A stretch of 64,000 bases of DNA from a phage, in sequence record PZ452610.1. The stretch is one strand, 5' to 3'. Below the pieces are notes generated by a model. That model made no database searches. It was not told where the DNA came from and worked only from the letters and a program-made list of their open reading frames with translations. Positions 1 to 64,000 of this stretch are shown piece after piece. How positions within the stretch are numbered: position 1 is the first letter of the stretch; each line of letters starts with the position of its first letter. The position numbers were made by a program, and so were the translations under genes.

Positions 1-319
1 TTTTTTCGATCAGGTTATCTGCTGTAATGCGTCCATTTTGATACCATGTAACATCTTCAGAGTAACCAGTTTCTTCGTCAACATATGTTTCTGAACGAAT
101 TTTACCGGTAATAATAGTTTTTAATTCGTATGTGTCACCTGTGAAAAAGTTTGCTAACACAATTTTCCAAGAGAAATCATTTGAAGGACCTTCAGGGGTC
201 ATACAACTTACGAACTCAAATTGCTCTTTGTATAACATCCACTGGAATTCTTTAATTTCGATAGCTTTATAACCGTCGTGGTCTTTACATTTGATGTATG
301 AGTTCAGATTGATTTTCAT
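1..319 (-). CDS. hypothetical protein, N-terminal part (gene continues past window start)
   Basis: ATG at 317-319 (-), open frame to position 1 (MKINLNSYIKCKDHDGYK...); early promoter 361-389 directly upstream; not in ORF track because no stop inside window. Confidence 0.45.
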   Translation of the reverse strand, partial: MKINLNSYIKCKDHDGYKAIEIKEFQWMLYKEQFEFVSCMTPEGPSNDFSWKIVLANFFTGDTYELKTIITGKIRSETYVDEETGYSEDVTWYQNGRITADNLIEK

Positions 320-360
320 TTTATTCTCCGGTTGTTTTATTGATTAGGTGGTACAAGTCT

Positions 361-389
361 ATAGTAACACATCCTACAGGAGAGTAAAC
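361..389 (-). promoter_or_regulatory. T4-type early promoter
   Basis: minus strand GTTTAC -35 (plus 384-389), 17 bp, TACTAT -10 (plus 361-366); upstream of CDS start 319. Confidence 0.5.
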
Positions 390-425
390 ATCTTTTTAAT
401 CTTTTTCTGCCCTAAACGCACAAAA

Positions 426-443
426 GGGAGACCGAAGTCTCCC
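426..443 (-). terminator. intrinsic terminator, UUCG-loop hairpin
   Basis: GGGAGAC-UUCG-GUCUCCC on minus strand followed by UUUUGUG; 5 nt after stop of 449-628. Confidence 0.65.
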
Positions 444-448
444 TAAAA

Positions 449-628
449 TTATGCAACAACCTTTCCAAAACGAGAAGCATCATCTCGAAGAACTGCACGT
501 GCTCTGCGCATGATCTTCTCAACTGTTTGATTAATACGAGAGTTCGACCCACGCTTGTATCCAGCGCGTTTAGAGGTACCATCAACTTTCTTTTCAACTG
601 CTTTCTTTGCTTTAGCTTGTTTTGCCAT
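449..628 (-). CDS. small basic protein, 59 aa (MAKQAKAKKAVEKK...)
   Basis: ATG 626-628 (-), TAA at 449-451, followed immediately by UUCG hairpin terminator; Lys/Arg-rich; replaces different-frame track ORF 412-597. Confidence 0.4.
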   Translation of the reverse strand: MAKQAKAKKAVEKKVDGTSKRAGYKRGSNSRINQTVEKIMRRARAVLRDDASRFGKVVA

Positions 629-896
629 TATAAATTCTCTTTAAATGAAAATGCAGGACTTATTGACATTGCCTGCGCAAGCCCTCAAGGGGAACATAGG
701 TTTTGGATATTTAACGACAGGATAACCATAAACCCGTCATCATACCAACCACGACTTAGACAGATAACCTTTTTCTGACGCGTGATAGTACAAAATACAT
801 TCAAGAGGTACACCGTAAAATTGTCGGGGCGGTACTTCTAAAACATACCGATTCGCAAATCGATAATCAGACAATTCGACGGCTCCTCGATTTAAC

Positions 897-1145
897 TTAC
901 TTCAGGGTAATAATAAAATGACGTACTGCTTTACGAGCTGCTGAAGCCAGAGGCTTAGCATATTTCAGTTCATCTTTTGCTTCCAGTTCAGCAGCCAGAG
1001 TAGCCTGAGCAGGATTCAGATGTTTGAAATATCGCAGGATTTCCAGTGCTTCGGCTTCAACATCAATTGAAGCGCCGTAGTTTTCGTGACCGTTATTCCA
1101 TGCGTTGCGTTGCAGTTCAAGAGCGTGTTGTAATTGTTTAATCAT
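897..1145 (-). CDS. rIII: rIII lysis-inhibition accessory protein
   Basis: 82 aa, near-identical to remembered T4 rIII (MIKQLQHALELQRNAWNNGHENYGASIDVEAEALEILRYF...); position next to gene 31. Confidence 0.8.
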   Translation of the reverse strand: MIKQLQHALELQRNAWNNGHENYGASIDVEAEALEILRYFKHLNPAQATLAAELEAKDELKYAKPLASAARKAVRHFIITLK

Positions 1146-1261
1146 TTTAAATTCTCAATTCGAGATAATATTTAGTAGCCACGTTCGTCTGAATTTCACC
1201 TTCTTTCGACAGGTCTCTCAGTTGTAGGCTACCGCTTAGAAGAGTGTTCTCTTCATATAGT

Positions 1262-1269
1262 TATTTATA
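1262..1269 (-). promoter_or_regulatory. T4 late promoter (TATAAATA)
   Basis: plus tatttata = TATAAATA on minus strand, directly after gene 31 stop, upstream of rIII. Confidence 0.4.
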
Positions 1270-1602
1270 TCACTTATAAAGACACGGAATAGCTTTATAG
1301 TGGCATGTTACGAATTTCTGTTTAATTTCTTTAGGTTGTTTAAGTCCCAAAGCCACAAATGGATGTGGAACATTTCGAATTTGTCCAACTGGTAGTGGAG
1401 TCAAATCACCGACTTCAACAAAACCTTCAGGAACATCAGGACCTACAGAATGAACTACACATAGTTCAGGAACTTCACCTTGAACACGTTTACCGATCAC
1501 AAGTCCTGATTCGGTAACTTCTTCATCACCTGCTTGAGCGGGTTCAGAAACCAGAATGACATATTCACCAACAGCACGAATTGGGAGTTGTACTTCAGAC
1601 AT
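1270..1602 (-). CDS. 31: gp31 co-chaperonin (GroES analogue for capsid folding)
   Basis: 110 aa; [34 protein letters not shown]... matches T4 gp31 almost residue for residue. Confidence 0.9.
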
Positions 1603-1659
1603 CTTATTTCCTTGTTGTTTGACGATAGATTAATAATACCATACTATTCGTAAAGCATA

Positions 1660-1968
1660 TTACATAAGAAGCAAACGTTCTACCGGAGTACCATCAACCG
1701 AAATTACTTTATCAAGGCGGAAAGAACGCCACTGGCCTAACTTGGTATCGAATGCTCGAACTGATTCACGAGGTTCAGAACGAACTTCTGTTGCCGGATT
1801 GTTATTTTCATATTTGACTTCAAGTTCATCACGCGAAGCAAACATAGTGCGTACCTCGCCGTTAGCCTTTTCAAATACAACACAATGAACGCCTACAGAC
1901 AGAATAGTTTTAATACGTTCACGAAGAACCATAGTTTCTTGTTCAGTTAAAATCATATTATTCACCAC
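1660..1968 (-). CDS. hypothetical protein
   Basis: 102 aa ORF between 31 and cd, co-directional, overlaps cd by 11 nt. Confidence 0.5.
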   Translation of the reverse strand: MVNNMILTEQETMVLRERIKTILSVGVHCVVFEKANGEVRTMFASRDELEVKYENNNPATEVRSEPRESVRAFDTKLGQWRSFRLDKVISVDGTPVERLLLM

Positions 1969-2539
1969 AAAAGTTTCGGATTTGTTCCCAATTCAGAGAA
2001 CGAAGATTATTACGAGAGTACTGAATTACTTCAATACCGGCTTGTTTTAGAATGTCTGCCCAATTTTCAGGAGATCTGTCATATAATTCTGCGTATACAA
2101 CCTTTTTAATACCTGACTGTGTAATAGCTTTAGTGCAATCAGGACATGGAGAAAGTGTCGTATACAACGTAGCACCTTCAATAGAATTACCTTTACGAGC
2201 TGCAAACAAAATTGCATTCAGTTCCGCATGGATTTCGTTATTAGCGGACCATGCACTATGAGCAGCCCGATGTTCTTTAGCCAAAACAAAATTATCCACC
2301 CGTCCAAATGCTGTAGTGCCTTCTTTATGCCCAGCAACGATGACCGGGCTTGGTTTATTCTTCAACCAACCGTTTTCGGATGCATGTTCACAACAGTTAA
2401 CACCACCGGCCGGGCTACCGTTATACCCAGTAGAGATAATGCGTCCATCTTTTTCAATGACGGCACCAACTTTCCATGAACAACATTTTGATTCTTGAGA
2501 AATCAAATAAGCAATTTGAAGATATGTGCTAGCTTTCAT
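1958..2539 (-). CDS. cd: dCMP deaminase
   Basis: 193 aa; cytidine/dCMP deaminase zinc motifs (CCEH... SPCPDC); T4 cd position. Confidence 0.9.
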   Translation of the reverse strand: MKASTYLQIAYLISQESKCCSWKVGAVIEKDGRIISTGYNGSPAGGVNCCEHASENGWLKNKPSPVIVAGHKEGTTAFGRVDNFVLAKEHRAAHSAWSANNEIHAELNAILFAARKGNSIEGATLYTTLSPCPDCTKAITQSGIKKVVYAELYDRSPENWADILKQAGIEVIQYSRNNLRSLNWEQIRNFCGE

Positions 2540-3531
2540 TATTGAACCTTATTAATATAAGTTAACAGCTCTTTAGTTTGTTCCCAACTGATGCACGCAT
2601 CGGTAACGGAAACGCCATAGGACATATTATCAGAAATTTTTTGATTTCCTTCATGTAGGAATGATTCTATCATAATTCCTTTGACCAAATCATTAGCTGC
2701 TAAATTTTTACCAATACCAATTTGATTGCTATAATGCCCATCAGCGTTTGCATGGCTACAGTCAACCATTACATAATGATTCAGACCTACTGCCCTTGCT
2801 TTGTTAGAAGCTTCTTGAATATCAGAAGAATGATAGTTCGGGCCGTTGGTCCCGCCACGCAATACGATATGCGTATTCTGATTACCTTCAGCTTCAACAA
2901 TGCCTACAGTACCATCGACGTCCATACCCATATACCGATGAGGCCAGGCGGCACTATACATCGCGTCTGTAGCTACTTTAATAGAACCATTGGTTGCGTT
3001 CTTGAAGCCTACGCACATCGGTAGACCTGAAGCAATTTCACGATGTGTCTGACTTTCAGTCGTACGGGCGCCAATAGCAACCCATGAGAAAATACCAGAA
3101 AGATACTTAATCGTGAATGGGTCTAATACTTCAGTTGCTAATGGAAGTCCCATACGTAGAAGTTTACGACACAATGTTCGTGCAACTATAAGACCGTGGT
3201 TCATATCAAAACTTCCGTCAAGATATGGATCATTTACAAGACCTTTCCAACCTACGGTAGTTCGAGGCTTTTCAAAATAAACGCGCATCACTAACAGAAC
3301 ATTAGGAAGACGAGTTTGAAGTTCAGCCAGACGTTTGCCGTATTCAACAGCAGCAATAGGGTCATGAATTGAACAAGGACCTACAACAATAAGTTTGCGT
3401 GGGTCTTCACCGTTCATAATCGAATTAACTTGTTCGCGATGAGAAGCCACTTGTGATGCGTAAGCTTCCGACAAAGGAATAATCTCAGCCAGTTCTTTTG
3501 GAGAAATAAGTTTTCCGACGACAGGTAACAT
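2539..3531 (-). CDS. 3-deoxy-D-arabino-heptulosonate-7-phosphate (DAHP) synthase, AroG/AroF class
   Basis: 330 aa; LIVVGPCSIHDP, YFEKPRTTVGWKGLVNDP, IGARTTESQTHRE, GFKNATNGSIKVA align along whole length with E. coli AroG; stop overlaps cd start (TAATG). Confidence 0.9.
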   Translation of the reverse strand: MLPVVGKLISPKELAEIIPLSEAYASQVASHREQVNSIMNGEDPRKLIVVGPCSIHDPIAAVEYGKRLAELQTRLPNVLLVMRVYFEKPRTTVGWKGLVNDPYLDGSFDMNHGLIVARTLCRKLLRMGLPLATEVLDPFTIKYLSGIFSWVAIGARTTESQTHREIASGLPMCVGFKNATNGSIKVATDAMYSAAWPHRYMGMDVDGTVGIVEAEGNQNTHIVLRGGTNGPNYHSSDIQEASNKARAVGLNHYVMVDCSHANADGHYSNQIGIGKNLAANDLVKGIMIESFLHEGNQKISDNMSYGVSVTDACISWEQTKELLTYINKVQ

Positions 3532-3651
3532 AACAATCCTTAGGAGATATAAACAGATTCTGATTCAACAATACCTTTAACCGGATTAGACAGGCTAAGT
3601 TGGTAGTGCTCAGATTTATGACCATTCTCGATAGTAATGAGATAGCTCTCA

Positions 3652-3888
3652 TTATAGTGTTCCATATACTCGAGTTGCTTCAACAAGACCATCACTGCCT
3701 AATTTAAGATTAGTAATTTGGTCACCATCTTTAGGATTAACGATTATGAGAAAAGAACGTGGAGATTCTTGAATAACTCGTAATGTTGCATCTTGGAAAC
3801 GTTCAGACACTTTATTGATGAGTGCTTGAGCAAATTCTTTTACTTTAATCTGAAATTCGTGTACTGTAATTGGGTTTTCACTTAGCAT
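3652..3888 (-). CDS. hypothetical protein
   Basis: 78 aa ORF with own early promoter at 3917-3946. Confidence 0.55.
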   Translation of the reverse strand: MLSENPITVHEFQIKVKEFAQALINKVSERFQDATLRVIQESPRSFLIIVNPKDGDQITNLKLGSDGLVEATRVYGTL

Positions 3889-3916
3889 TTCTATTTCCTC
3901 ATTTGTTGGTAGAGTT

Positions 3917-3946
3917 ATAGTATCACAACTCCACCATGTTGTAAAC
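3917..3946 (-). promoter_or_regulatory. T4-type early promoter
   Basis: GTTTAC -35, 18 bp, TACTAT -10; upstream of start 3888. Confidence 0.5.
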
Positions 3947-3948
3947 CA

Positions 3949-4224
3949 TTAAATTGCTTTGCATTCAATTTTTTGTGTACCGAAATTGATATCACACTGG
4001 ATAACTAAATCGCCGTCAAGATCAAATACCACTATGACGTGTGCAGACCCAGGGAGAAGAGTAATAGCAATAGAATCTACTTGGTCTGGGAGCAAAGCAT
4101 TGAGTACATGAGTTAGTTGAGCATGAACTCTGAGTTCGGCTGCATTATCAAGCACTTCAAACATATTATTAGCAATAATCTGACTGAAGACTACCTTTAC
4201 AATTTCAGAATAAGTTGGGAACAT
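3949..4224 (-). CDS. hypothetical protein
   Basis: 91 aa co-directional ORF in cd-pseT interval. Confidence 0.5.
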   Translation of the reverse strand: MFPTYSEIVKVVFSQIIANNMFEVLDNAAELRVHAQLTHVLNALLPDQVDSIAITLLPGSAHVIVVFDLDGDLVIQCDINFGTQKIECKAI

Positions 4225-4231
4225 AATTACC

Positions 4232-4456
4232 TCAGTGTACAGTATTTACTTTAACTCGAACAACAAATCGCTCGGTCGGTTCACCTACAGGAACAAACTC
4301 TACATGATATTCACCTTTGTAACGAGTATTCAGATCATTACGAATTCCTGCGAGTTTGTTGATTAATGTAGGACTCATATTAAGTCCCACTAGTTTACGA
4401 AGCATTTTGTATGCTTCATCTTCGATTTCATGATGTTTATCGTACATAGTTTTCAT
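4232..4456 (-). CDS. hypothetical protein
   Basis: 74 aa co-directional ORF. Confidence 0.5.
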   Translation of the reverse strand: MKTMYDKHHEIEDEAYKMLRKLVGLNMSPTLINKLAGIRNDLNTRYKGEYHVEFVPVGEPTERFVVRVKVNTVH

Positions 4457-4627
4457 TTAACCATTCAATTGCCTGGTCGACGTTATCAAATATACCGCCG
4501 TCCAAACGTTCTTCATGCTCATAGTCCAGCACATCAATACCGAACTGTCCATTTACTAAAGGCCAGGCTACAAACAAATATTCTTTATGCTGTTCGATGG
4601 CCTCAATCACTTCATATAATCGTTTCA

Positions 4628-4628
<1 letters not shown>
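4437..4628 (-). CDS. hypothetical protein
   Basis: 63 aa ORF, stop overlaps pseT start. Confidence 0.5.
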
Positions 4629-5692
<1,064 letters not shown>

Positions 5693-5715
<23 letters not shown>

Positions 5716-6016
5716 TATTTATTCCTAAGAAAGTTTCAAGAATACGAATGTTATGCTCGCGCCGGTCTTTATTAATTTCAGCAACGTTTTTATTAATTGA
5801 CGTACTTCTAACGTTTGAAGAAATAAATTTAATCATATGACTTTTGAGTTGTTGCAAATCCAACCCTTTTTCTTTAGCAGCTTTACGAAGAGCTTTACCT
5901 GCTTCATCTAGGGCCTTTGCCGCATCTTTGTCATAATTGACAAGTGACGACGTTCCACGACAGATATCAATATACTCATCAGACCGTTTGATGTAATTCT
6001 CTAGTAATGTTTTCAT
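5693..6016 (-). CDS. hypothetical protein
   Basis: 107 aa ORF with early promoter 6045-6074. Confidence 0.55.
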
Positions 6017-6044
6017 TTAGATTTCCTCAATTATCCATAGGAGC

Positions 6045-6074
6045 ATTATACTCTGCTCCCGAGAGTTTGTAAAC
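6045..6074 (-). promoter_or_regulatory. T4-type early promoter
   Basis: GTTTAC -35, 18 bp, TATAAT -10; upstream of start 6016. Confidence 0.55.
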
Positions 6075-6298
6075 TATTTTACTAAAGATTCAATATACTC
6101 ATGAAGAGCTTTAGTCGCTACTGCCCACTTATTCTGATATTCATTTTTCAGATTAGCACGAGACTGAACTAACAAGCGGTCATTAGTCGGAGGCAAAGAT
6201 TCTAATCGTTGAATCTGGCGCCCATAAATCATAGCCGCCATTTCAGATTCATAGATAAGCCCTTTAATGTATTCATGCTGTTCTTTAGTCATTGGCAT
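6074..6298 (-). CDS. hypothetical protein
   Basis: 74 aa co-directional ORF. Confidence 0.5.
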   Translation of the reverse strand: MPMTKEQHEYIKGLIYESEMAAMIYGRQIQRLESLPPTNDRLLVQSRANLKNEYQNKWAVATKALHEYIESLVK

Positions 6299-8663: not shown

Positions 8664-9073
8664 TACTTTTTCTTATGTTGGATATTCCAAGGCGGGTTGA
8701 ACTTTTTGATAAAAAGCGGTTCTTCAAGGTCCATTGTTGCGATGGTCATTGAACCAAGTTCGTTGGTGACTGAAAGGTCAAAACATTGGCGGGCCCAGAA
8801 TTCAACCTTTTTGCCTTGCATTAAGGCATCCAAAATCATAAGTGATTTTCTTGAATCTGAAGTCTGGTCTTTTCGATTTATGGCTGTTCGATAGTAGTTA
8901 ATGCGTTTCTTTAAATTCTTGGTTTTACCAATATACACAAGTTCGTCATCTATAGCAATAGCGTATATGACATTTTTCTTATTAGGGACATCAACTGTTT
9001 TAATTGTTGCATCTTCTAATAGCTCCAATTCTGTATATTTAATAAAGGAATATTCGGCGGCAATATCTTTCAT
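8663..9073 (-). CDS. denA: endonuclease II (GIY-YIG type)
   Basis: 136 aa as in T4; VYIGKTKNLKKRINYY GIY-YIG-like motif; position between rnlA and nrdB. Confidence 0.8.
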   Translation of the reverse strand: MKDIAAEYSFIKYTELELLEDATIKTVDVPNKKNVIYAIAIDDELVYIGKTKNLKKRINYYRTAINRKDQTSDSRKSLMILDALMQGKKVEFWARQCFDLSVTNELGSMTIATMDLEEPLFIKKFNPPWNIQHKKK

Positions 9074-9102
9074 AATAAAGTGGGACCGAAGTCCCGTCCT
9101 TA
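9074..9102 (-). promoter_or_regulatory. hairpin-bridged (split) ribosome binding site of denA
   Basis: mRNA reads UAAGGAC-GGGACUUCGGUCCC-ACUUUAUU-AUG: SD AAGGA overlaps nrdB stop, 14-nt UUCG hairpin separates it from denA AUG (23 nt linear, about 9 nt if hairpin forms). Confidence 0.45.
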
Positions 9103-10275
9103 GAAATATTTTTTGTATGAATTGATTACATTTTGGTCTACATCATTATCAATTTGTGCGACAAGATAAGAACTGATTTCAACTTCCTGAGGAGCTGCTT
9201 GAACTAAATCGGAGTTCAGATATTCACGAATCCAAGGATACGGATGCTTGGTCGGAGCATCAGTGATTGGGCATGGCAAACCACACTGTTTCATACGAGA
9301 CACAGTCAAGTAATCAACAAAAGCACACATACTCTGTGTATTGATACCTGGGCATGTACCTTCTTTAAAGAGGTGTGCAGCCCATTCCTTCTCTTGACTA
9401 TTTACTTCCATAAAAATGTCAACTGCTTCTTGTTCACATTCTTTAGCAATTCGAACCCACTCATCGCCATCAGTACCAGATTGAAGTTGACGGATAATGT
9501 ACTGAGTACCCTTGAGGTGGAGTTGTTCGTCACGAGCAATGAACTTCATAATCTTTGCATTACCTTCCATAATTTCCATATTTTTATGGAAGTTGAAAGT
9601 ACATGCAAATGATACGTAAAAACGAATAGCTTCTAAGGCATTGATAACATGCAAACAGAGATAAAGAGACTTCATTAAATCACGCTTGGCGTTAAACATT
9701 ATTTCTTCGTACATCTCAATATCATTCTGCTGGCATGAGCCTATTGAACACTCATAAACTTCCTTAGCATTTTCCCAACGACGAGTCTTGTCTAGAACAT
9801 CATCGTAATATTTACCTATTGATTCGGCTCGTTTCATGATTGCTTCGTCTAATACAATCTCATCAAATACTTTGGATGGATCAGTATAAAGATTTCGCAT
9901 AATATGAGTATATGAACGAGAGTGAATAGTTTCACTGAATGTCCATGTTGCAACCCACGTATCTAATGAAGGGTCGGAAATCAGTGCCATAAGTACCGCA
10001 GATGGGGCCCTGCCTTGGATAGAATCTAATAATGATTGATACTTAAGATTGTTTGTAAAAATGTCCTGTTGGAACTGAGGAAGCTTATTGAACTGTGCAG
10101 AGTCCAACATCAAGTTTACCTCTTCGGGGCGCCAGAAAAATGACAAGGATTTTTCTATAAGTTCTTCAAAAACTTTATGTCGTTGAATATCGTAACGTGC
10201 AAGACCAAGACCGGAACCAAAGAACATCGGTTCGTTCAAAACATCGACTTGTTGTGTATTAAAAACTGTACTCAT
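9100..10275 (-). CDS. nrdB: ribonucleotide reductase small subunit
   Basis: 391 aa; di-iron R2 family, T4 NrdB-like; uninterrupted (no intron). Confidence 0.9.
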   Translation of the reverse strand: MSTVFNTQQVDVLNEPMFFGSGLGLARYDIQRHKVFEELIEKSLSFFWRPEEVNLMLDSAQFNKLPQFQQDIFTNNLKYQSLLDSIQGRAPSAVLMALISDPSLDTWVATWTFSETIHSRSYTHIMRNLYTDPSKVFDEIVLDEAIMKRAESIGKYYDDVLDKTRRWENAKEVYECSIGSCQQNDIEMYEEIMFNAKRDLMKSLYLCLHVINALEAIRFYVSFACTFNFHKNMEIMEGNAKIMKFIARDEQLHLKGTQYIIRQLQSGTDGDEWVRIAKECEQEAVDIFMEVNSQEKEWAAHLFKEGTCPGINTQSMCAFVDYLTVSRMKQCGLPCPITDAPTKHPYPWIREYLNSDLVQAAPQEVEISSYLVAQIDNDVDQNVINSYKKYF

Positions 10276-60694: not shown

Positions 60695-61243
60695 TTAACG
60701 AGCCCATTTGATGATTTCTGTAATCAAATCATTACGTTCGCTTGCATTAAATCCTATAACTTTGTTAGCACCATCATGATTAAGTAATTGATACGTTTGG
60801 ATTTTGTTATGAATTGCAAACTCTTCAAAATGTGAAATGACTGTATTAAAACCGAATGAAGACAAAGTGATAAGGTCGTCTTCAAAACTTTCAGTCATTT
60901 CGTTACGTGTTAAAATAATTGTGAACACATCATGGTTTTGGCAAAGACGAACATAATCCTGTTCATAAACGTCAAGAACCGAGTCCGCATCTTGTCGAAT
61001 ACGTCCATAAACCCAGTTACTAATATATCCACGGTCTAACAGATAAATCTTAGTAGGGTCTAAATAATTCAACATCGTTTCGAAACAGCCAACTTCATTT
61101 CGAGACTTAACATCGAAACGTCCATCAACTGTTCGTTTAGGGAAATCAATCTTTACATATCTTTCACTAATTTCCATTATGTCATTAATGAAAGTTGTTT
61201 TACCAGCATTATCCGGGCCATCTACTAAAATAATTTTAGCCAT
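60695..61243 (-). CDS. thymidylate-kinase-like P-loop nucleotide kinase
   Basis: 182 aa; IILVDGPDNAGKTT (Walker A as in Tmk IEGLEGAGKTT) and LDRGYISNWVYG (Tmk DRH..S..AYQ-like). Confidence 0.55.
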   Translation of the reverse strand: MAKIILVDGPDNAGKTTFINDIMEISERYVKIDFPKRTVDGRFDVKSRNEVGCFETMLNYLDPTKIYLLDRGYISNWVYGRIRQDADSVLDVYEQDYVRLCQNHDVFTIILTRNEMTESFEDDLITLSSFGFNTVISHFEEFAIHNKIQTYQLLNHDGANKVIGFNASERNDLITEIIKWAR

Positions 61244-61244
61244 T

Positions 61245-62144
61245 TTATTCCTCGATTACGACATCTTCATATTTAGGTATATTATACGGTGAAGAAATTA
61301 AAGCATTAAAGTAGATGAACTCACCAAGACCTGGATGAAATACTTCTTCAGGATTTTCGAAATATTGAATCTTCGGACGTCCTTTAAGAATTTGATAGTA
61401 CTCAGTTTTAGTTGGTTTAAAAATTCGAATCAACGCTTCTTCAGGATACTTATTTCTGTCGAAGCTATTATTTGGATCGGTTATATAAAGCGGTTGACCT
61501 AATTGAATTGCGCATTCAACAACTTGTTCAAAACGATAGCATGGGTCACTAATTCGAAATGGATGAAAAATACCATCTAGATGAATAGGAGCCAAATCAC
61601 CTACAAGACGCTGCATGATGGAAGGACGTATAACTTTCTGCGTTACGATAATCTTATTACCATCTGCACCTGCGTTAACCAGCACTTCTTTTTGACGTTC
61701 ATTCAACACAGTAGTTTGAAGTGAACGATTAACCGACAACATATCAGTTTTTAAGAATTCGTCAATATAAAAACGTGGTTTATTAGGGTCTGCAGTGATA
61801 TTGAAATTGAATTCCACATCAAAAGCGCCGTCATATCCAGTGATATCTGTGATTAAAAAATCACAATCATAATAAGCAATTAATGAATCAACAACAAATT
61901 CATTTTCAGACCAGAAATATTTACGAGTGTTATACGCGTTATCTTTATACCATAATGGAACAAACTTAAATTCTGGAAAAAGACGTTCGCATTCTTTAAT
62001 ATCAGATGCATTACGTGGATATGTAATCACATCACCCGGATTAGCACGGTGCAAATGAAGTTGGAAGTTGCCATCCTTAAGGATAGCATACTGTCCAGTT
62101 TCATAAGACCGCATACTCAAGATTGGTACGCGGAAAATAGCCAT
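61245..62144 (-). CDS. hypothetical protein with DxD-like motif (possible GT-A-type transferase)
   Basis: 299 aa; hydrophobic strand then DCD (LIAYYDCDFLITD); occupies the slot where T4 has beta-gt; tightly coupled to flanking genes. Confidence 0.3.
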   Translation of the reverse strand: MAIFRVPILSMRSYETGQYAILKDGNFQLHLHRANPGDVITYPRNASDIKECERLFPEFKFVPLWYKDNAYNTRKYFWSENEFVVDSLIAYYDCDFLITDITGYDGAFDVEFNFNITADPNKPRFYIDEFLKTDMLSVNRSLQTTVLNERQKEVLVNAGADGNKIIVTQKVIRPSIMQRLVGDLAPIHLDGIFHPFRISDPCYRFEQVVECAIQLGQPLYITDPNNSFDRNKYPEEALIRIFKPTKTEYYQILKGRPKIQYFENPEEVFHPGLGEFIYFNALISSPYNIPKYEDVVIEE

Positions 62145-62860
62145 TAGTCAAGGAATCCTTTAACATAATCAAAATCACGTTCAAACACATGGGCACTTAC
62201 CATGGTATGAGTATAATCACCAACTTCTACCCCACATTCGTTAGCGATATAATGAAGTAATTTTCCTTGGAGATAAAAATCCAACTGCATAACAACAGCA
62301 CAGTTCTGAGAACGCATATGACAGTGGGTATAAAGCTTACCATCACGAATATAATAAGTCACTGAGTCAGTACATGGATATTCAAGCGTTTCGTCCGAAT
62401 CAAGCAAAGCCTGATCAGAACTTTCTAGAATTTGGAACACAACTCTTCGAGAGTTAGGCTTCTCTTTAAGTTCTTTTAGAAGAGCTGGTAATTGGGCCGC
62501 AATGCGAGGACCATAGAAAGTGTTGAAGTTCGCCGGCAAAACATCTGATTTTGGTTTAGAAATAAATTTAGCGACATTAGGATATGCCTTAAACGCTTCT
62601 TCTGCGTTGGTACCACCAGAAATCATAAACTTCCAGAAGTCTTCGGCATATTCATAAGAGATGCGGTTAATACGTGGGTCGGTCATTTTGAATGATGATG
62701 GAGTGTCAACAACTACTGTCATAGACCCAATTTCATTACAACGTCCAATACGAGAATCAGTTACGAATTCCGGGTTTTCTAAAATTTCACGATTGACTGC
62801 TTTAAATGCGGTTTGAAAATCTGCGGCTTTGATATATTTCATTGTGTTATGTTTTCCCAT
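62144..62860 (-). CDS. thymidylate-synthase-fold dCMP hydroxymethylase-like enzyme
   Basis: 238 aa; KPNSRRVVFQI, YPCTDS (nucleophile Cys), MRSQN....D signature of TS/dCMP-HMase fold with Asp at the cytosine-specifying position; N-terminal two thirds unlike remembered T4 gp42. Confidence 0.6.
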   Translation of the reverse strand: MGKHNTMKYIKAADFQTAFKAVNREILENPEFVTDSRIGRCNEIGSMTVVVDTPSSFKMTDPRINRISYEYAEDFWKFMISGGTNAEEAFKAYPNVAKFISKPKSDVLPANFNTFYGPRIAAQLPALLKELKEKPNSRRVVFQILESSDQALLDSDETLEYPCTDSVTYYIRDGKLYTHCHMRSQNCAVVMQLDFYLQGKLLHYIANECGVEVGDYTHTMVSAHVFERDFDYVKGFLD

Positions 62861-62902: not shown

Positions 62903-63142
62903 TTATTTGAATTTCTTGACAATGTTGATATAACGTAAAGCTTCAGCATCGATACTTCCAAGAACACTATGAAGAAATGCATCAGCGTAGTATTCCAATT
63001 GAACAGGTTCTTTAATCACTTTAGCCGCTTTAGTTTCAAACAGGCCCATCAGGGCCTTTTTAAGAATTTGTTCGTTGCTGTTAATTTTCATAGTCAAAAT
63101 CTCTTCATTAAGTTGGTGGTTAAAAGTTTTTCTAGAAATCAT
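62903..63142 (-). CDS. hypothetical protein
   Basis: 79 aa ORF between U32-like and TS-fold genes. Confidence 0.45.
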   Translation of the reverse strand: MISRKTFNHQLNEEILTMKINSNEQILKKALMGLFETKAAKVIKEPVQLEYYADAFLHSVLGSIDAEALRYINIVKKFK

Positions 63143-64000
63143 TCCGGGTACCTCAAAGCGTCATCAGAGTTAGTTATATCAATAATAGATATAGAGTTTT
63201 CTGCTAACCCGTTTTTAGATAATTGACGTTTATAATATCTTTCACAATATGTACACGTCGTCCCGCAGATTTCATTAGCACAATCGAAATCTGGATGTCT
63301 GAACCACCTTTTTTCTAAAAAGCCATCTAACAAAGAGGTTTCAATATTTACTGTATGTGAAAACTCAGTTTCGTTTTCAAGAGTGAAAATAGTCTCTAAA
63401 GGCTTCCACAGTTCTAACAAATTACCTTCAAACTTTTCAGAAGCGTATGCTTCAAGAACTTTCAAAATGTAGTCTGTGCTACCTGTACGTCCTGAAACTT
63501 TGAATTGAGTGATACCAATATCATTATAAAGTTTCAAATCTTGAGGACGAACAAAACGAGTTCTCAACCAGTTAAATGGGTCTGTATCACGAGCTTTAAT
63601 ACAGTGCTGCATAGGATATCCGTTTAAGGATTTAGCATCATCAGCTGTAACATCAGTACTATGGAAAATATAGCAAGAGTCACGATAGCTACAATGTGTT
63701 GTATACCCTTTACCAGCATTAGAACAGAACTCATTTACAAGAACTTCAAATATTATATTGTTCTTATTGCAAAACTCTGCTGCACGCTTCAGGAAAGAAA
63801 CTGAACGGTTCTTATGAATTCCACAGCAGACCTTTTTGATATTATACTGGTCATGCAAGTATTTGATTTGAGTTACAGCATCGACATGTAGAATTGTTGA
63901 AACTTCAATCTCAATGTCTTTATTGACTTCACGAACAATTTCCATAACAACAGGGTTAGCGATAGTAATACGCCATACGCCTATTGACCAAAGATACTGA
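63139..64000 (-). CDS. U32-peptidase-family protein (RlhA/TrhP/UbiU-like Fe-S enzyme), C-terminal part; gene continues past window end
   Basis: frame open to position 64000; FEVLVNEFCSNAGKGYTTHCSYRDSC (C-x10-C-x4-C) and DIGITQFKVSGRTGSTDYILKVLEAY (KIEGR-like) resemble U32 core; extra C-terminal CxxxCxxxCxxC. Confidence 0.5.
   Translation of the reverse strand, partial: QYLWSIGVWRITIANPVVMEIVREVNKDIEIEVSTILHVDAVTQIKYLHDQYNIKKVCCGIHKNRSVSFLKRAAEFCNKNNIIFEVLVNEFCSNAGKGYTTHCSYRDSCYIFHSTDVTADDAKSLNGYPMQHCIKARDTDPFNWLRTRFVRPQDLKLYNDIGITQFKVSGRTGSTDYILKVLEAYASEKFEGNLLELWKPLETIFTLENETEFSHTVNIETSLLDGFLEKRWFRHPDFDCANEICGTTCTYCERYYKRQLSKNGLAENSISIIDITNSDDALRYPE

Follow-up and report, generated by a model that had tools for sequence, protein, structure and literature searches.

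A DAHP synthase with a remodelled inhibitor pocket tracks a U32-family gene in T4-like phages and may supply prephenate for cytosine hydroxylation

We analyzed a 64,000-nucleotide stretch of phage DNA (record PZ452610.1, hereafter the window) that encodes, at positions 2539..3531 on the minus strand, a predicted type Iα DAHP synthase (DAHPS) of 330 amino acids, where DAHP stands for the 7-phosphate of 3-deoxy-D-arabino-heptulosonate. DAHP synthases join erythrose 4-phosphate (E4P) and phosphoenolpyruvate (PEP) to form DAHP, the reaction that opens the shikimate pathway. The gene starts with ATG, and its product has intact catalytic residues and an altered allosteric pocket. Over positions 1500-5600 the window has 100% identity to three Mosigviruses (Straboviridae, Tevenvirinae), namely the Escherichia coli O157 typing phages with the numbers 3, 6 and 13. 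At the far end of the window lies the 3' part of a U32-family gene, the ortholog of RB69 gp50 (63139..64000, minus strand), which runs past the window end. A first-pass annotation, made from the sequence alone, had recorded both genes and had speculated that the synthase might feed the U32 enzyme.

The gene directly downstream of DAHPS is cd, which encodes a dCMP deaminase of 193 amino acids (1958..2539, minus strand; open reading frame (ORF) and NC_041863 annotation). The neighbourhood noticed at first pass is confirmed, and the two genes overlap, the DAHPS stop and the cd start sharing the sequence TAATG (2537..2541, minus strand). Translational coupling of the two genes and their place in an early operon, both stated at first pass, are presumptive. 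The DAHPS leader (3532..3636, minus strand) carries a Shine-Dalgarno sequence, AAGGA, at 3537-3541, 5 nt ahead of the ATG. Together, gene and leader make up a 1,094-bp cassette (2543..3636) that is precisely missing from RB69, as seen by blastn and from the junctions, and the cassette ends are a 7-nt direct repeat, TCATTAT, that is, an ATAATGA stop/start gene junction. Upstream follows a cd.2 homolog (3652..3888, minus strand) with a promoter-like site at 3945-3917 that matches the consensus no better than chance; a promoter and terminator scan of positions 1-6200 found no excess over shuffled sequences (15 promoters, 17.7 expected). Searches with NCBIfam models found no chorismate mutase or other shikimate gene among the small ORFs that flank DAHPS. 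Two overlapping small ORFs at 3485-3695 (minus strand) span the DAHPS leader and the cd.2 junction. One, of 51 amino acids, is annotated as gp027; the other, of 55 amino acids, starts at the cd.2 stop, and its start is exactly the RB69 cd start point, which makes it a leftover from that junction of the cassette. RB69 cd itself is annotated as 169 amino acids (locus L015, 5743-6252), compared with 193 in the window, with a divergent C-terminal end (...ILKPSWY, then the stop). This difference looks like a frameshift or a sequencing error in an old record, and further such errors in the RB69 record are described in a 2026 Nucleic Acids Research paper (PMC13326640).

The assignment of the DAHPS to its family is clear at the level of class and less so at the level of isozyme. 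The protein scores 252 bits against the Pfam model DAHP_synth_1 (PF00793; E = 5e-75, gathering threshold 25.5), 427.7 bits against the NCBIfam equivalog TIGR00034 for aroFGH (cut-off 173.2) and 455.1 against NF009395 (cut-off 343), but it falls below the cut-offs of the AroG-specific model NF006723 (363.2, cut-off 568) and the AroH-specific model NF009396 (386, cut-off 463). The profile of PHROG 5045, labelled 'phospho-2-dehydro-3-deoxyheptonate aldolase; moron/AMG', is matched with E = 3.2e-182, residues 1-330 falling on profile positions 8-337 of 341. In the PDB the closest entries are E. coli AroF (6agm, 5e-105) and AroG (1gg1, 4e-91), and the matches are DAHP synthases throughout, as far as 1e-79. 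Based on full-length pairwise alignment, the identity is 51% to AroF, 48% to AroG and 44% to AroH. The whole-length alignment with AroG described at first pass therefore stands, as do the four motifs it listed (GPCSIHDP, FEKPRTTVGWKG, IGARTTESQTHRE and KNATNGSIKVA), all of which are in the translation. Its term 'AroG-type' is right in that the enzyme is a type Iα DAHPS but not in the choice of isozyme, since AroF is nearest and the AroG- and AroH-specific cut-offs are missed.

Alignments and a 124-sequence table (described below) show that the metal ligands C61, H268, E302 and D326 (AroG numbering) are invariant, and so are the PEP/E4P-binding residues R92, K97, P98-R99-T100, G163-A164-R165, K186 and R234. 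The protein carries the motif KPRT rather than the KANRS-type motif of 3-deoxy-D-manno-octulosonate 8-phosphate (KDO8P) synthase and is not most similar to KdsA; profile and sequence searches against AroG, AroF, AroH and KDO8P synthase identify a DAHPS and not a KDO8P synthase. Judged by its sequence, it is a catalytically complete type Iα DAHP synthase that is marginally AroF-like. It shares with E. coli AroF, AroG and AroH the fold family, the length class and the catalytic machinery; it differs in being phage-encoded, in an N-terminus 8-9 residues shorter and in a pocket with P150 replaced by I, Q151 by K and S180 by P.

As the first-pass annotation had stated, the N-terminus is about 8 residues shorter than that of AroG (9 relative to AroF), and the first residue aligns with AroG R9. 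In the AroG-Phe structure, the N-terminal residues D6, D7 and I10 contribute to the inhibitor pocket of the neighbouring subunit. The window protein has IK instead of PQ at AroG positions 150-151 and P instead of S at position 180; the cellular type Iα motifs D-x-x-x-P-Q-Y and G-L-S read DPFTIKY and GLPM in the phage enzyme. We tabulated these positions in the 120 best database clusters and the E. coli isozymes (124 sequences). All 23 clusters of the phage clade have (I/P)(K/R) at 150-151, with IK in 21; P150 is replaced by I in 22 of them, the proline being kept in P0142, and both the change of Q151 to K/R and that of S180 to P are present in 23/23. The whole phage clade (23/23) has 5-9 residues ahead of the position of AroG L16, compared with a median of 16 in the remaining sequences. 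Among the other 97 (cellular) sequences, 88 have PQ and Ser180, and the phage-type IK/P signature is confined to two, P0150, which comes from a Providencia phage, and P0189, which is a fragment. The window protein does not have the AroF/G/H-type feedback pocket, as defined by P150-Q151, S180 and the N-terminal residues.

In AroG, the P150L, S180F and Gln151 variants are feedback-resistant, and Gln151 (AroF Q152) and Ser180 (AroF S181) contact the main chain of the inhibitor (PMC9529685). The phage enzymes are changed at the same pocket positions as the engineered or selected resistant alleles (P150L, S180F, D146N and Q151 variants), but the phage changes are natural, multiple, fixed throughout a clade and combined with an N-terminal truncation, D146 is kept, and insensitivity is predicted. 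The suggestion that the enzyme could be deregulated had rested on the short N-terminus; because the pocket changes fall at known feedback-resistance positions, and are clade-wide, it now has support beyond that feature. Apparently, the phage DAHPS is no longer inhibited by Phe, Tyr or Trp. The clade-wide remodelling of the aromatic-amino-acid pocket is a new result.

The gene is not a newcomer to these genomes. The order pseT...DAHPS...cd is conserved in six genera (Mosig-, Kanagawa-, Marfa-, Winkler-, Braga- and Kagamiyamavirus), and the GC content of the gene (41%, with 30% at third codon positions) is like that of neighbouring phage genes, compared with 52% for E. coli aroF and aroG. A search of 5.8 billion proteins returned a phage DAHPS clade at 55-98% identity followed by a cellular plateau at 50-54% from many phyla, with no close cellular donor. 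Composition, synteny and placement show a long residence in phages. Because of the six-genus synteny, the absence of the gene from RB69 is most simply a secondary deletion, and since RB69 lacks it, the gene is dispensable in the laboratory. It had been called unexpected among T4-type nucleotide-metabolism genes, which does not hold in the sense of unannotated: it has its own PHROG, it occurs in more than 200 phage records, and its existence was already known from annotation, usually as DAHP synthase, aroF or AroG. We found no paper in the searchable literature that discusses the role of a phage DAHPS.

The second gene of interest, the U32-like gene recorded at first pass, is real. Its complete form in RefSeq NC_041864 (L002:4688-5848) encodes 386 amino acids; the ORF listing of the window had given 268 amino acids (63139-63945), starting at an internal Met. 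The full-length protein scores 42.2 bits against the Pfam model Peptidase_U32 (PF01136; threshold 22.4, E = 7e-11; 1.5e-5 for the truncated version), and the window protein is 99.3% identical to RB69 gp50. Its identity to RlhA, TrhP and UbiU is 12-24%. It reaches no NCBIfam equivalog and so belongs to no characterised U32 subfamily (17.7 bits against the UbiU model, cut-off 440), it has no sequence match in the PDB, and it falls in a separate, phage-borne clade. In 20 members of this clade (47-100% identity) ten cysteines are invariant: C158, C177, C192, C203, C209, C233, C340, C345, C349 and C352. Among them are a core set of four (C192, C203, C209, C233) and a Cx4Cx3Cx2C motif at the C-terminus, and the pattern is compatible with Fe-S clusters, although a MAFFT alignment with UbiU, UbiV, TrhP and RlhA is too divergent for the ligands to be mapped. 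Across all U32-bearing Straboviridae genera, and even in Shewanella phage Thanatos-1, the U32 protein is 80-88% identical, compared with 42-73% for the neighbouring AfhE and 58-77% for DAHPS, which marks the gene as one of those in its cluster that are under the strongest constraint or were exchanged last.

The U32 gene stands in a DNA-modification cluster, all on the minus strand. Its stop overlaps the start of an ORF of 79 amino acids (62903..63142; ortholog of RB69 ORF049c), which has no family match and no cysteines; two small ORFs occupy its position in Yersinia phage TG1, and it may encode a U32 accessory protein. Then follow a ThyA-superfamily gene (62144..62860), by synteny the ortholog of RB69 gp48, an O2/flavin-dependent 5-hydroxy-dCMP (5hodCMP) synthase (PMC13326640), a putative DNA arabosyltransferase 1 of 299 amino acids (61245..62144; ortholog of RB69 gp46:47) and a thymidylate-kinase-like nucleotide kinase (60695..61243; ortholog of RB69 gp45). 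The phage also encodes a KdsD-like arabinose-5-phosphate (A5P) isomerase, a HAD phosphatase and a nucleotidyltransferase. According to the 2026 study of the RB69-type cluster, its product is arabosylated 5-hydroxycytosine (5hoC) and not hydroxymethylcytosine (hmC); the ThyA homolog gp48 forms 5-hydroxy-dCMP by means of flavin and O2, as confirmed by 18O2 labelling, and this flavin enzyme replaces the folate-dependent hmC step in 5hoC phages (PMC13326640). The same paper lists gp50 just as a 'sugar or heterocycle reductase', makes no mention of U32, prephenate, DAHP or shikimate, and cites the RlhA and TrhP pathways in its discussion as unrelated chemistry.

Those pathways are the reason why a link between U32 and DAHPS was proposed. 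RlhA, a U32 protein, forms 5-hydroxycytidine (ho5C) and needs prephenate and an Fe-S cluster (PMC5727448), and TrhP, another, is prephenate-dependent and O2-independent and acts in parallel to the O2-dependent TrhO (PMC6599085), so that the tie between U32 RNA hydroxylases and prephenate cited at first pass holds. For UbiU/V, prephenate is the oxygen donor, a role that has been proposed for U32 proteins generally (PMC10990095).

To compare the two phage genes across genomes we searched a set of 50,697 phage records with tblastn. The DAHPS was found in 213 records and the U32 gene in 222, all at an identity of at least 80%. A concatenated DAHPS+U32 query, for which records are the union and places the sum, gave 243 records and 436 places, so about 192 records have both genes; these counts are per record. 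The DAHPS-only records among those listed comprise pieces of genomes, contigs of faecal origin (35-47% identity), contigs labelled 'Acinetobacter phage MD-2021a', Aeromonas phage HJ05 and one contig from Salmonella. Genomes with U32 only include RB69, Yersinia Tegunaviruses, Serratia phage 92A1 and Shewanella phage Thanatos-1, and the annotation of Yersinia phage TG1 likewise has U32 without DAHPS. An hmC-type or U32-less T4-like phage with DAHPS was not found among the 50,697 records. The arabinose pathway is distributed more widely: an AfhE-like marker of arabinose activation was found in 374 records, some 57 of them from Acinetobacter phages and some 40 from E. coli Dhakaviruses. The annotations of Dhakavirus Bp7 and Lazarusvirus Berthold show a cluster of A5P isomerase, AfhE, phosphatase, ThyA and glycosyltransferase genes with neither U32 nor DAHPS. 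Within the arabinose-5hoC Straboviridae we therefore see three states, both genes, U32 only and neither, and never DAHPS only. Because Dhakavirus and Lazarusvirus have the arabinose cluster without either gene, the distribution of DAHPS goes with that of U32 and is separate from that of the sugar pathway, and for that reason we rejected a role of DAHPS in arabinose or pentose-phosphate supply. A rule by which U32 would distinguish phages of facultative anaerobes from those of strict aerobes was also tried; it fits the Acinetobacter phages and fails on the E. coli Dhakaviruses, which lack U32. The coupling of DAHPS and U32 is a new result, and the literature searched holds no paper that ties a phage DAHPS or gp50 to prephenate.

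Aeromonas phage HJ05 (79 kb, outside the Straboviridae) encodes a type Iα-like DAHPS of 387 amino acids (locus L012, 3899-5062) that is 36-38% identical. Its N-terminus is extended by a long His-rich stretch, and the residue at AroG position 180 is Pro. The neighbours of this DAHPS gene are a methyltransferase gene and an Acb2/Tad1-like gene directed against the cyclic-oligonucleotide-based antiphage signalling system (anti-CBASS). No close homolog of the window U32 was found in the HJ05 record (tblastn, E <= 1e-5).

The strongest evidence for the coupling comes from unrelated phages. Metagenomes contain about 250 relatives of the phage U32 protein, with identities of 48-58%. We sampled nine of their neighbourhoods and all nine are phage DNA, with genes for terminase, holin, primase, PolIIIα or PolB and RecA. 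The modules around U32 are concerned with deoxynucleotides and DNA glycosylation (thymidylate kinase, dUTPase, uracil-DNA glycosylase, dCMP deaminase, ThyX and glycosyltransferases). A ThyA-type hydroxylase gene was found within 10 kb of U32 in none of the nine neighbourhoods and in none of the non-Straboviridae loci of IMG/VR; contig L144, added later, has a distantly ThyA-like gene directly after DAHPS. In five unrelated contigs (L102, L123, a 58.5-kb JGI contig, L144 and L145) U32 is paired with a DAHPS of the other subclass, type Iβ. The two genes are directly adjacent in four of the five; in L145, where a small 4Fe-4S ferredoxin gene (61 amino acids) is near, a single ORF of 254 amino acids stands between them. 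In L102, the gene after U32 encodes a PF00793 member of 248 amino acids (6e-44) that shows the motifs of type Iβ DAHPS and whose best PDB match is the regulator-less DAHPS of Pyrococcus furiosus (1.7e-49; KDO8P synthase, 4.5e-9). The L123 genes, recovered from IMG/VR with a U32 profile, overlap by 4 nt and belong to a phage with PolB. The order in the 58.5-kb contig is U32-DAHPS-dCMP deaminase, with the latter two overlapping as they do in the window, and that in L144 is U32-DAHPS-ThyA-like.

A search with the type Iβ enzyme returned about 15 core-only clusters (239-267 amino acids). A gap in the scores sets these apart from the type Iβ enzymes of cells, most of which carry an FXD or chorismate-mutase domain. 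Core-only architecture is also that of the regulator-less P. furiosus enzyme (PDB 1zco), and the window enzyme, although of another subclass, likewise has no canonical regulatory element. Besides L102 and L123, four type Iβ contexts were examined: three, the 58.5-kb contig, L144 and L145, include U32, and the fourth, L146, is discussed below. The five contigs differ in their replication modules (PolIIIα or PolB) and in their sugar genes: L102 and L145 have A5P isomerase/AfhE-like ones, and the other three have UDP-glucose dehydrogenase and/or epimerase. Since the sugar genes vary, the constant pairing is that of U32 with DAHPS. Because the subclasses differ, the recruitments were independent: two structurally different classes of DAHPS, each without its normal regulatory element, have been taken up by U32 phages. 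Other searches in these data were less productive. The 248-254-amino-acid ORFs that follow U32 in L099 and L103 were considered as DAHPS and rejected as epimerase-like, and U32 was within 10 kb of a type Iα DAHPS in 0/80 IMG/VR loci, in a search ranked on AroG in which most matches were giant-virus metagenome-assembled genomes or cellular-like DNA.

Several other genes recur around U32. In most non-Straboviridae phages an ORF of about 307-338 amino acids without a Pfam match lies directly upstream of U32 and overlaps its start (L105-L108, L126, L130, L131, L133, L134 and L142). Among themselves these proteins share 41-57% identity, and their similarity to the putative gp46:47-type arabosyltransferase of the window (61245-62144) is 23-30%; they are distant homologs of it, which fits a pair of hydroxylase and transferase. 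Radical SAM genes, in many cases with a SPASM domain as well, turn up repeatedly close to U32 in large-phage contigs, at most a few genes away (L099, L100, L106); their products and the L145 ferredoxin may be electron-transfer or maturation partners of U32. The L144 contig encodes, at 8775-9659, a 294-amino-acid ThyA-superfamily protein that is 21% identical to the 5hodCMP synthase of the window (pairwise E = 8e-6), and this contig may hold a second system in which an O2-dependent and an O2-independent enzyme are paired, here in one operon. L100 and L101 (ENA, Logan; 86 and 24 kb) have two U32 paralogs with genes for a radical SAM/SPASM protein, an NT5C nucleotidase, a deoxynucleoside kinase, a nucleoside deoxyribosyltransferase, a nicotinamide mononucleotide (NMN) transporter and methyltransferases, adjoined by a dockerin-bearing GH43; they may represent a cellular or prophage nucleoside-modification island of a Firmicute. 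In L146, the PF00793 protein P0248 (2536-3339) is core-only and 52% identical to a U32-adjacent DAHPS, with altered sugar-binding motifs (KPRTRRLDFQG, LRGIKTWS), those of the U32-adjacent enzymes being canonical. Its gene belongs to a polysaccharide cluster, where the neighbours on either side encode a KdsC-like phosphatase and a KdsB-like cytidylyltransferase, and the enzyme has probably been neofunctionalised as a ulosonic-acid synthase.

With moderate confidence, we consider the best explanation of these patterns to be that a feedback-blind DAHPS boosts prephenate for an O2-independent C5-hydroxylation of cytosine by U32. The phage synthase, blind to Phe, Tyr and Trp, would restore shikimate flux while the host AroF, AroG and AroH are inhibited, as under conditions replete in aromatic amino acids such as those of the gut. 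The additional flux would be wanted as prephenate, the stoichiometric oxygen donor for the putative U32 Fe-S protein, which would hydroxylate dCMP, or another cytosine substrate related to it, at C5 without O2. In the window phage U32 would run in parallel to the O2/flavin ThyA-type 5hodCMP synthase, as TrhP does to TrhO, and in other phages it would replace that enzyme. The by-product, phenylpyruvate, could be transaminated to Phe. DAHPS would be an accessory booster and not an obligatory part of the pathway. The demand can be gauged from the genome: at the 37.6% GC of the window, a 168.7-kb genome has about 63,500 C, or 0.6-1.3 x 10^7 per burst of 100-200. We estimate that the corresponding prephenate would be a sizeable fraction of the total flux of the cell and far above the remainder left under feedback inhibition. 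Comparative genomics supports the suggestion of the first-pass annotation that DAHPS feeds U32, through the phyletic nesting of the two genes, their adjacency elsewhere and the location of U32 in the 5hoC cluster. Somewhat more tentatively, U32 and DAHPS together may constitute an O2-independent, prephenate-based route to 5-hydroxycytosine in DNA, with U32 as the sole hydroxylase in many uncultivated large phages whose U32 gene has no ThyA-type hydroxylase gene within 10 kb.

The proposal has relatives among known systems. The pairing of an O2/flavin enzyme with a U32 protein is that of TrhO and TrhP in tRNA (5-hydroxyuridine, ho5U), and RlhA makes ho5C in rRNA; in the phage the substrate would instead be a deoxynucleotide or DNA, modified genome-wide and at a stoichiometrically demanding scale, by a U32 protein that is highly diverged and whose activity is predicted. 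UbiU and UbiV, which belong to U32 too, have conserved Cys clusters, bind Fe-S and depend on the aro pathway, as is predicted for the phage protein; their substrate is a quinone precursor and no dedicated DAHPS is attached to them. CmoA/CmoX of Synechococcus phage S-B43 consume prephenate for a genome-wide DNA modification, with its supply flagged as open by the authors (PMC12783734). That phage, too, borrows prephenate-using RNA-modification chemistry for DNA hypermodification; it differs in that the chemistry is carboxymethylation through Cx-SAM (carboxy-S-adenosylmethionine) and that no phage DAHPS is reported.

A number of observations weigh against a prephenate-fed U32 hydroxylase. DAHPS and U32 are about 60 kb apart in the Straboviridae, and their co-occurrence there may reflect few independent events of gain and loss. 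An increase in DAHP need not give more prephenate, as seven host steps lie between and chorismate mutases are themselves feedback-inhibited. RB69, Tegunaviruses and others keep U32 without DAHPS, so DAHPS is dispensable, and the E. coli Dhakaviruses have the arabinose cluster without U32, so an anaerobic route is not universal in phages of enteric hosts. The invariance of the replacement residues in the pocket could signal a new effector instead of absent regulation, and the context of P0248 shows that PF00793 cores can serve sugar-acid synthesis. Finally, the ThyA homolog and a deoxynucleoside monophosphate (dNMP) kinase are enough to put 5-hydroxydeoxycytidine (5hodC) into E. coli DNA with O2 (PMC13326640), so U32 is not required aerobically.

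Among the alternatives, a generic auxiliary metabolic gene (AMG), by which DAHPS lifts the supply of aromatic amino acids or chorismate after host shut-off and co-occurs with U32 through shared ancestry, is unlikely in our judgement but deserves serious attention. It agrees with the moron/AMG class of PHROG 5045, with the position of DAHPS 60 kb from U32 and beside unrelated small ORFs, and with the good growth of RB69 without the gene, and a single ancestral acquisition followed by losses could explain the related genera. It leaves unexplained, however, why DAHPS is absent from hmC-type and U32-less T4-like phages among the 50,697 records, and why the other class of DAHPS lies beside U32 in five unrelated contigs. 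Moreover, a shortage of aromatic amino acids in itself frees the host isozymes from inhibition, and a feedback-blind enzyme is therefore useful mainly when aromatics are plentiful, that is, when such a supply is unneeded. We see a small chance that the enzyme is active but responds to a new effector, or that its product is destined for another chorismate derivative (folate via para-aminobenzoate (pABA), quinones or a siderophore). The replaced residues are invariant in orthologs of 55-98% identity, which suggests constraint over decay, and T4-like phages do use folates. On the other hand, the flavin enzyme has taken the place of the folate-dependent hmC step, so these phages would need less folate than hmC phages that have no DAHPS, and nothing ties quinones or siderophores to the nucleotide modules adjacent to U32.

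Slim, too, is the chance that the enzyme accepts another aldose phosphate, for example arabinose-5-phosphate made by the phage, and provides the DNA-sugar pathway with a KDO8P-like sugar acid instead of forming DAHP. Such a role would suit the KdsD-like A5P isomerase, HAD phosphatase and nucleotidyltransferase of the phage; PF00793 includes KDO8P synthases, the type Iβ relative P0248 sits in a KdsC-like/KdsB-like cluster, and 5-carbon sugar phosphates can serve as substrates for the DAHPS of P. furiosus and for DAHPS(Phe) of E. coli. Yet KPRT and every other DAHPS residue are kept, the PDB matches to DAHPS range from 1e-49 to 1e-105 compared with 4.5e-9 for KDO8P synthase, and it is P0248 that has diverged in the sugar-binding motifs, not the U32-adjacent members. 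Dhakavirus and Lazarusvirus, moreover, run the same A5P pathway without DAHPS, three of the U32-DAHPS contigs have UDP-glucose dehydrogenase or epimerase routes and no A5P isomerase, and NicPhage, which has DAHPS, shares mono- and di-arabosyl-5hoC with RB69, which does not (PMC13390438). To the idea of a host-gene remnant that no longer functions, raised at first pass as an inactive host-derived fragment, we assign almost no probability. Its one point is the absence from RB69; the ORF is full-length, retains all catalytic residues and has a phage-ameliorated composition, its identity to the AroF of the host is just 51%, and its position is kept in six genera and more than 190 genomes.

Arabosyl-5-hydroxycytosine DNA was described just in 2025-2026, with a hydroxylase that needs O2 and flavin. 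The hosts of these phages are gut enterobacteria, which often grow anoxically, and the U32 gene of the cluster had been left without a function. No paper in the searchable literature proposes an O2-independent prephenate route to 5-hydroxycytosine, which the gene patterns described here suggest. Whatever its role in infection, the phage DAHPS is a candidate for a natural feedback-resistant enzyme in the production of aromatic compounds. If the prephenate route is correct, it would offer a natural high-flux U32 system with a built-in substrate supply and a predicted 10^7 or so turnovers per infected cell, which could yield the long-sought in vitro or in vivo proof of U32 hydroxylase activity. 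Mosigviruses used in phage therapy may perform differently in aerobic laboratory tests and in the gut. Prephenate-dependent hydroxylation would be extended from RNA and quinones to DNA, with the first organic oxygen donor for the modification of DNA or its precursors and the first viral metabolic gene that makes such a donor. The metagenomic relatives would represent a widespread, so far unrecognised class of phage genomes with glycosylated hydroxypyrimidines, and for the Straboviridae the route would explain how anti-restriction DNA chemistry is kept up under anoxia.

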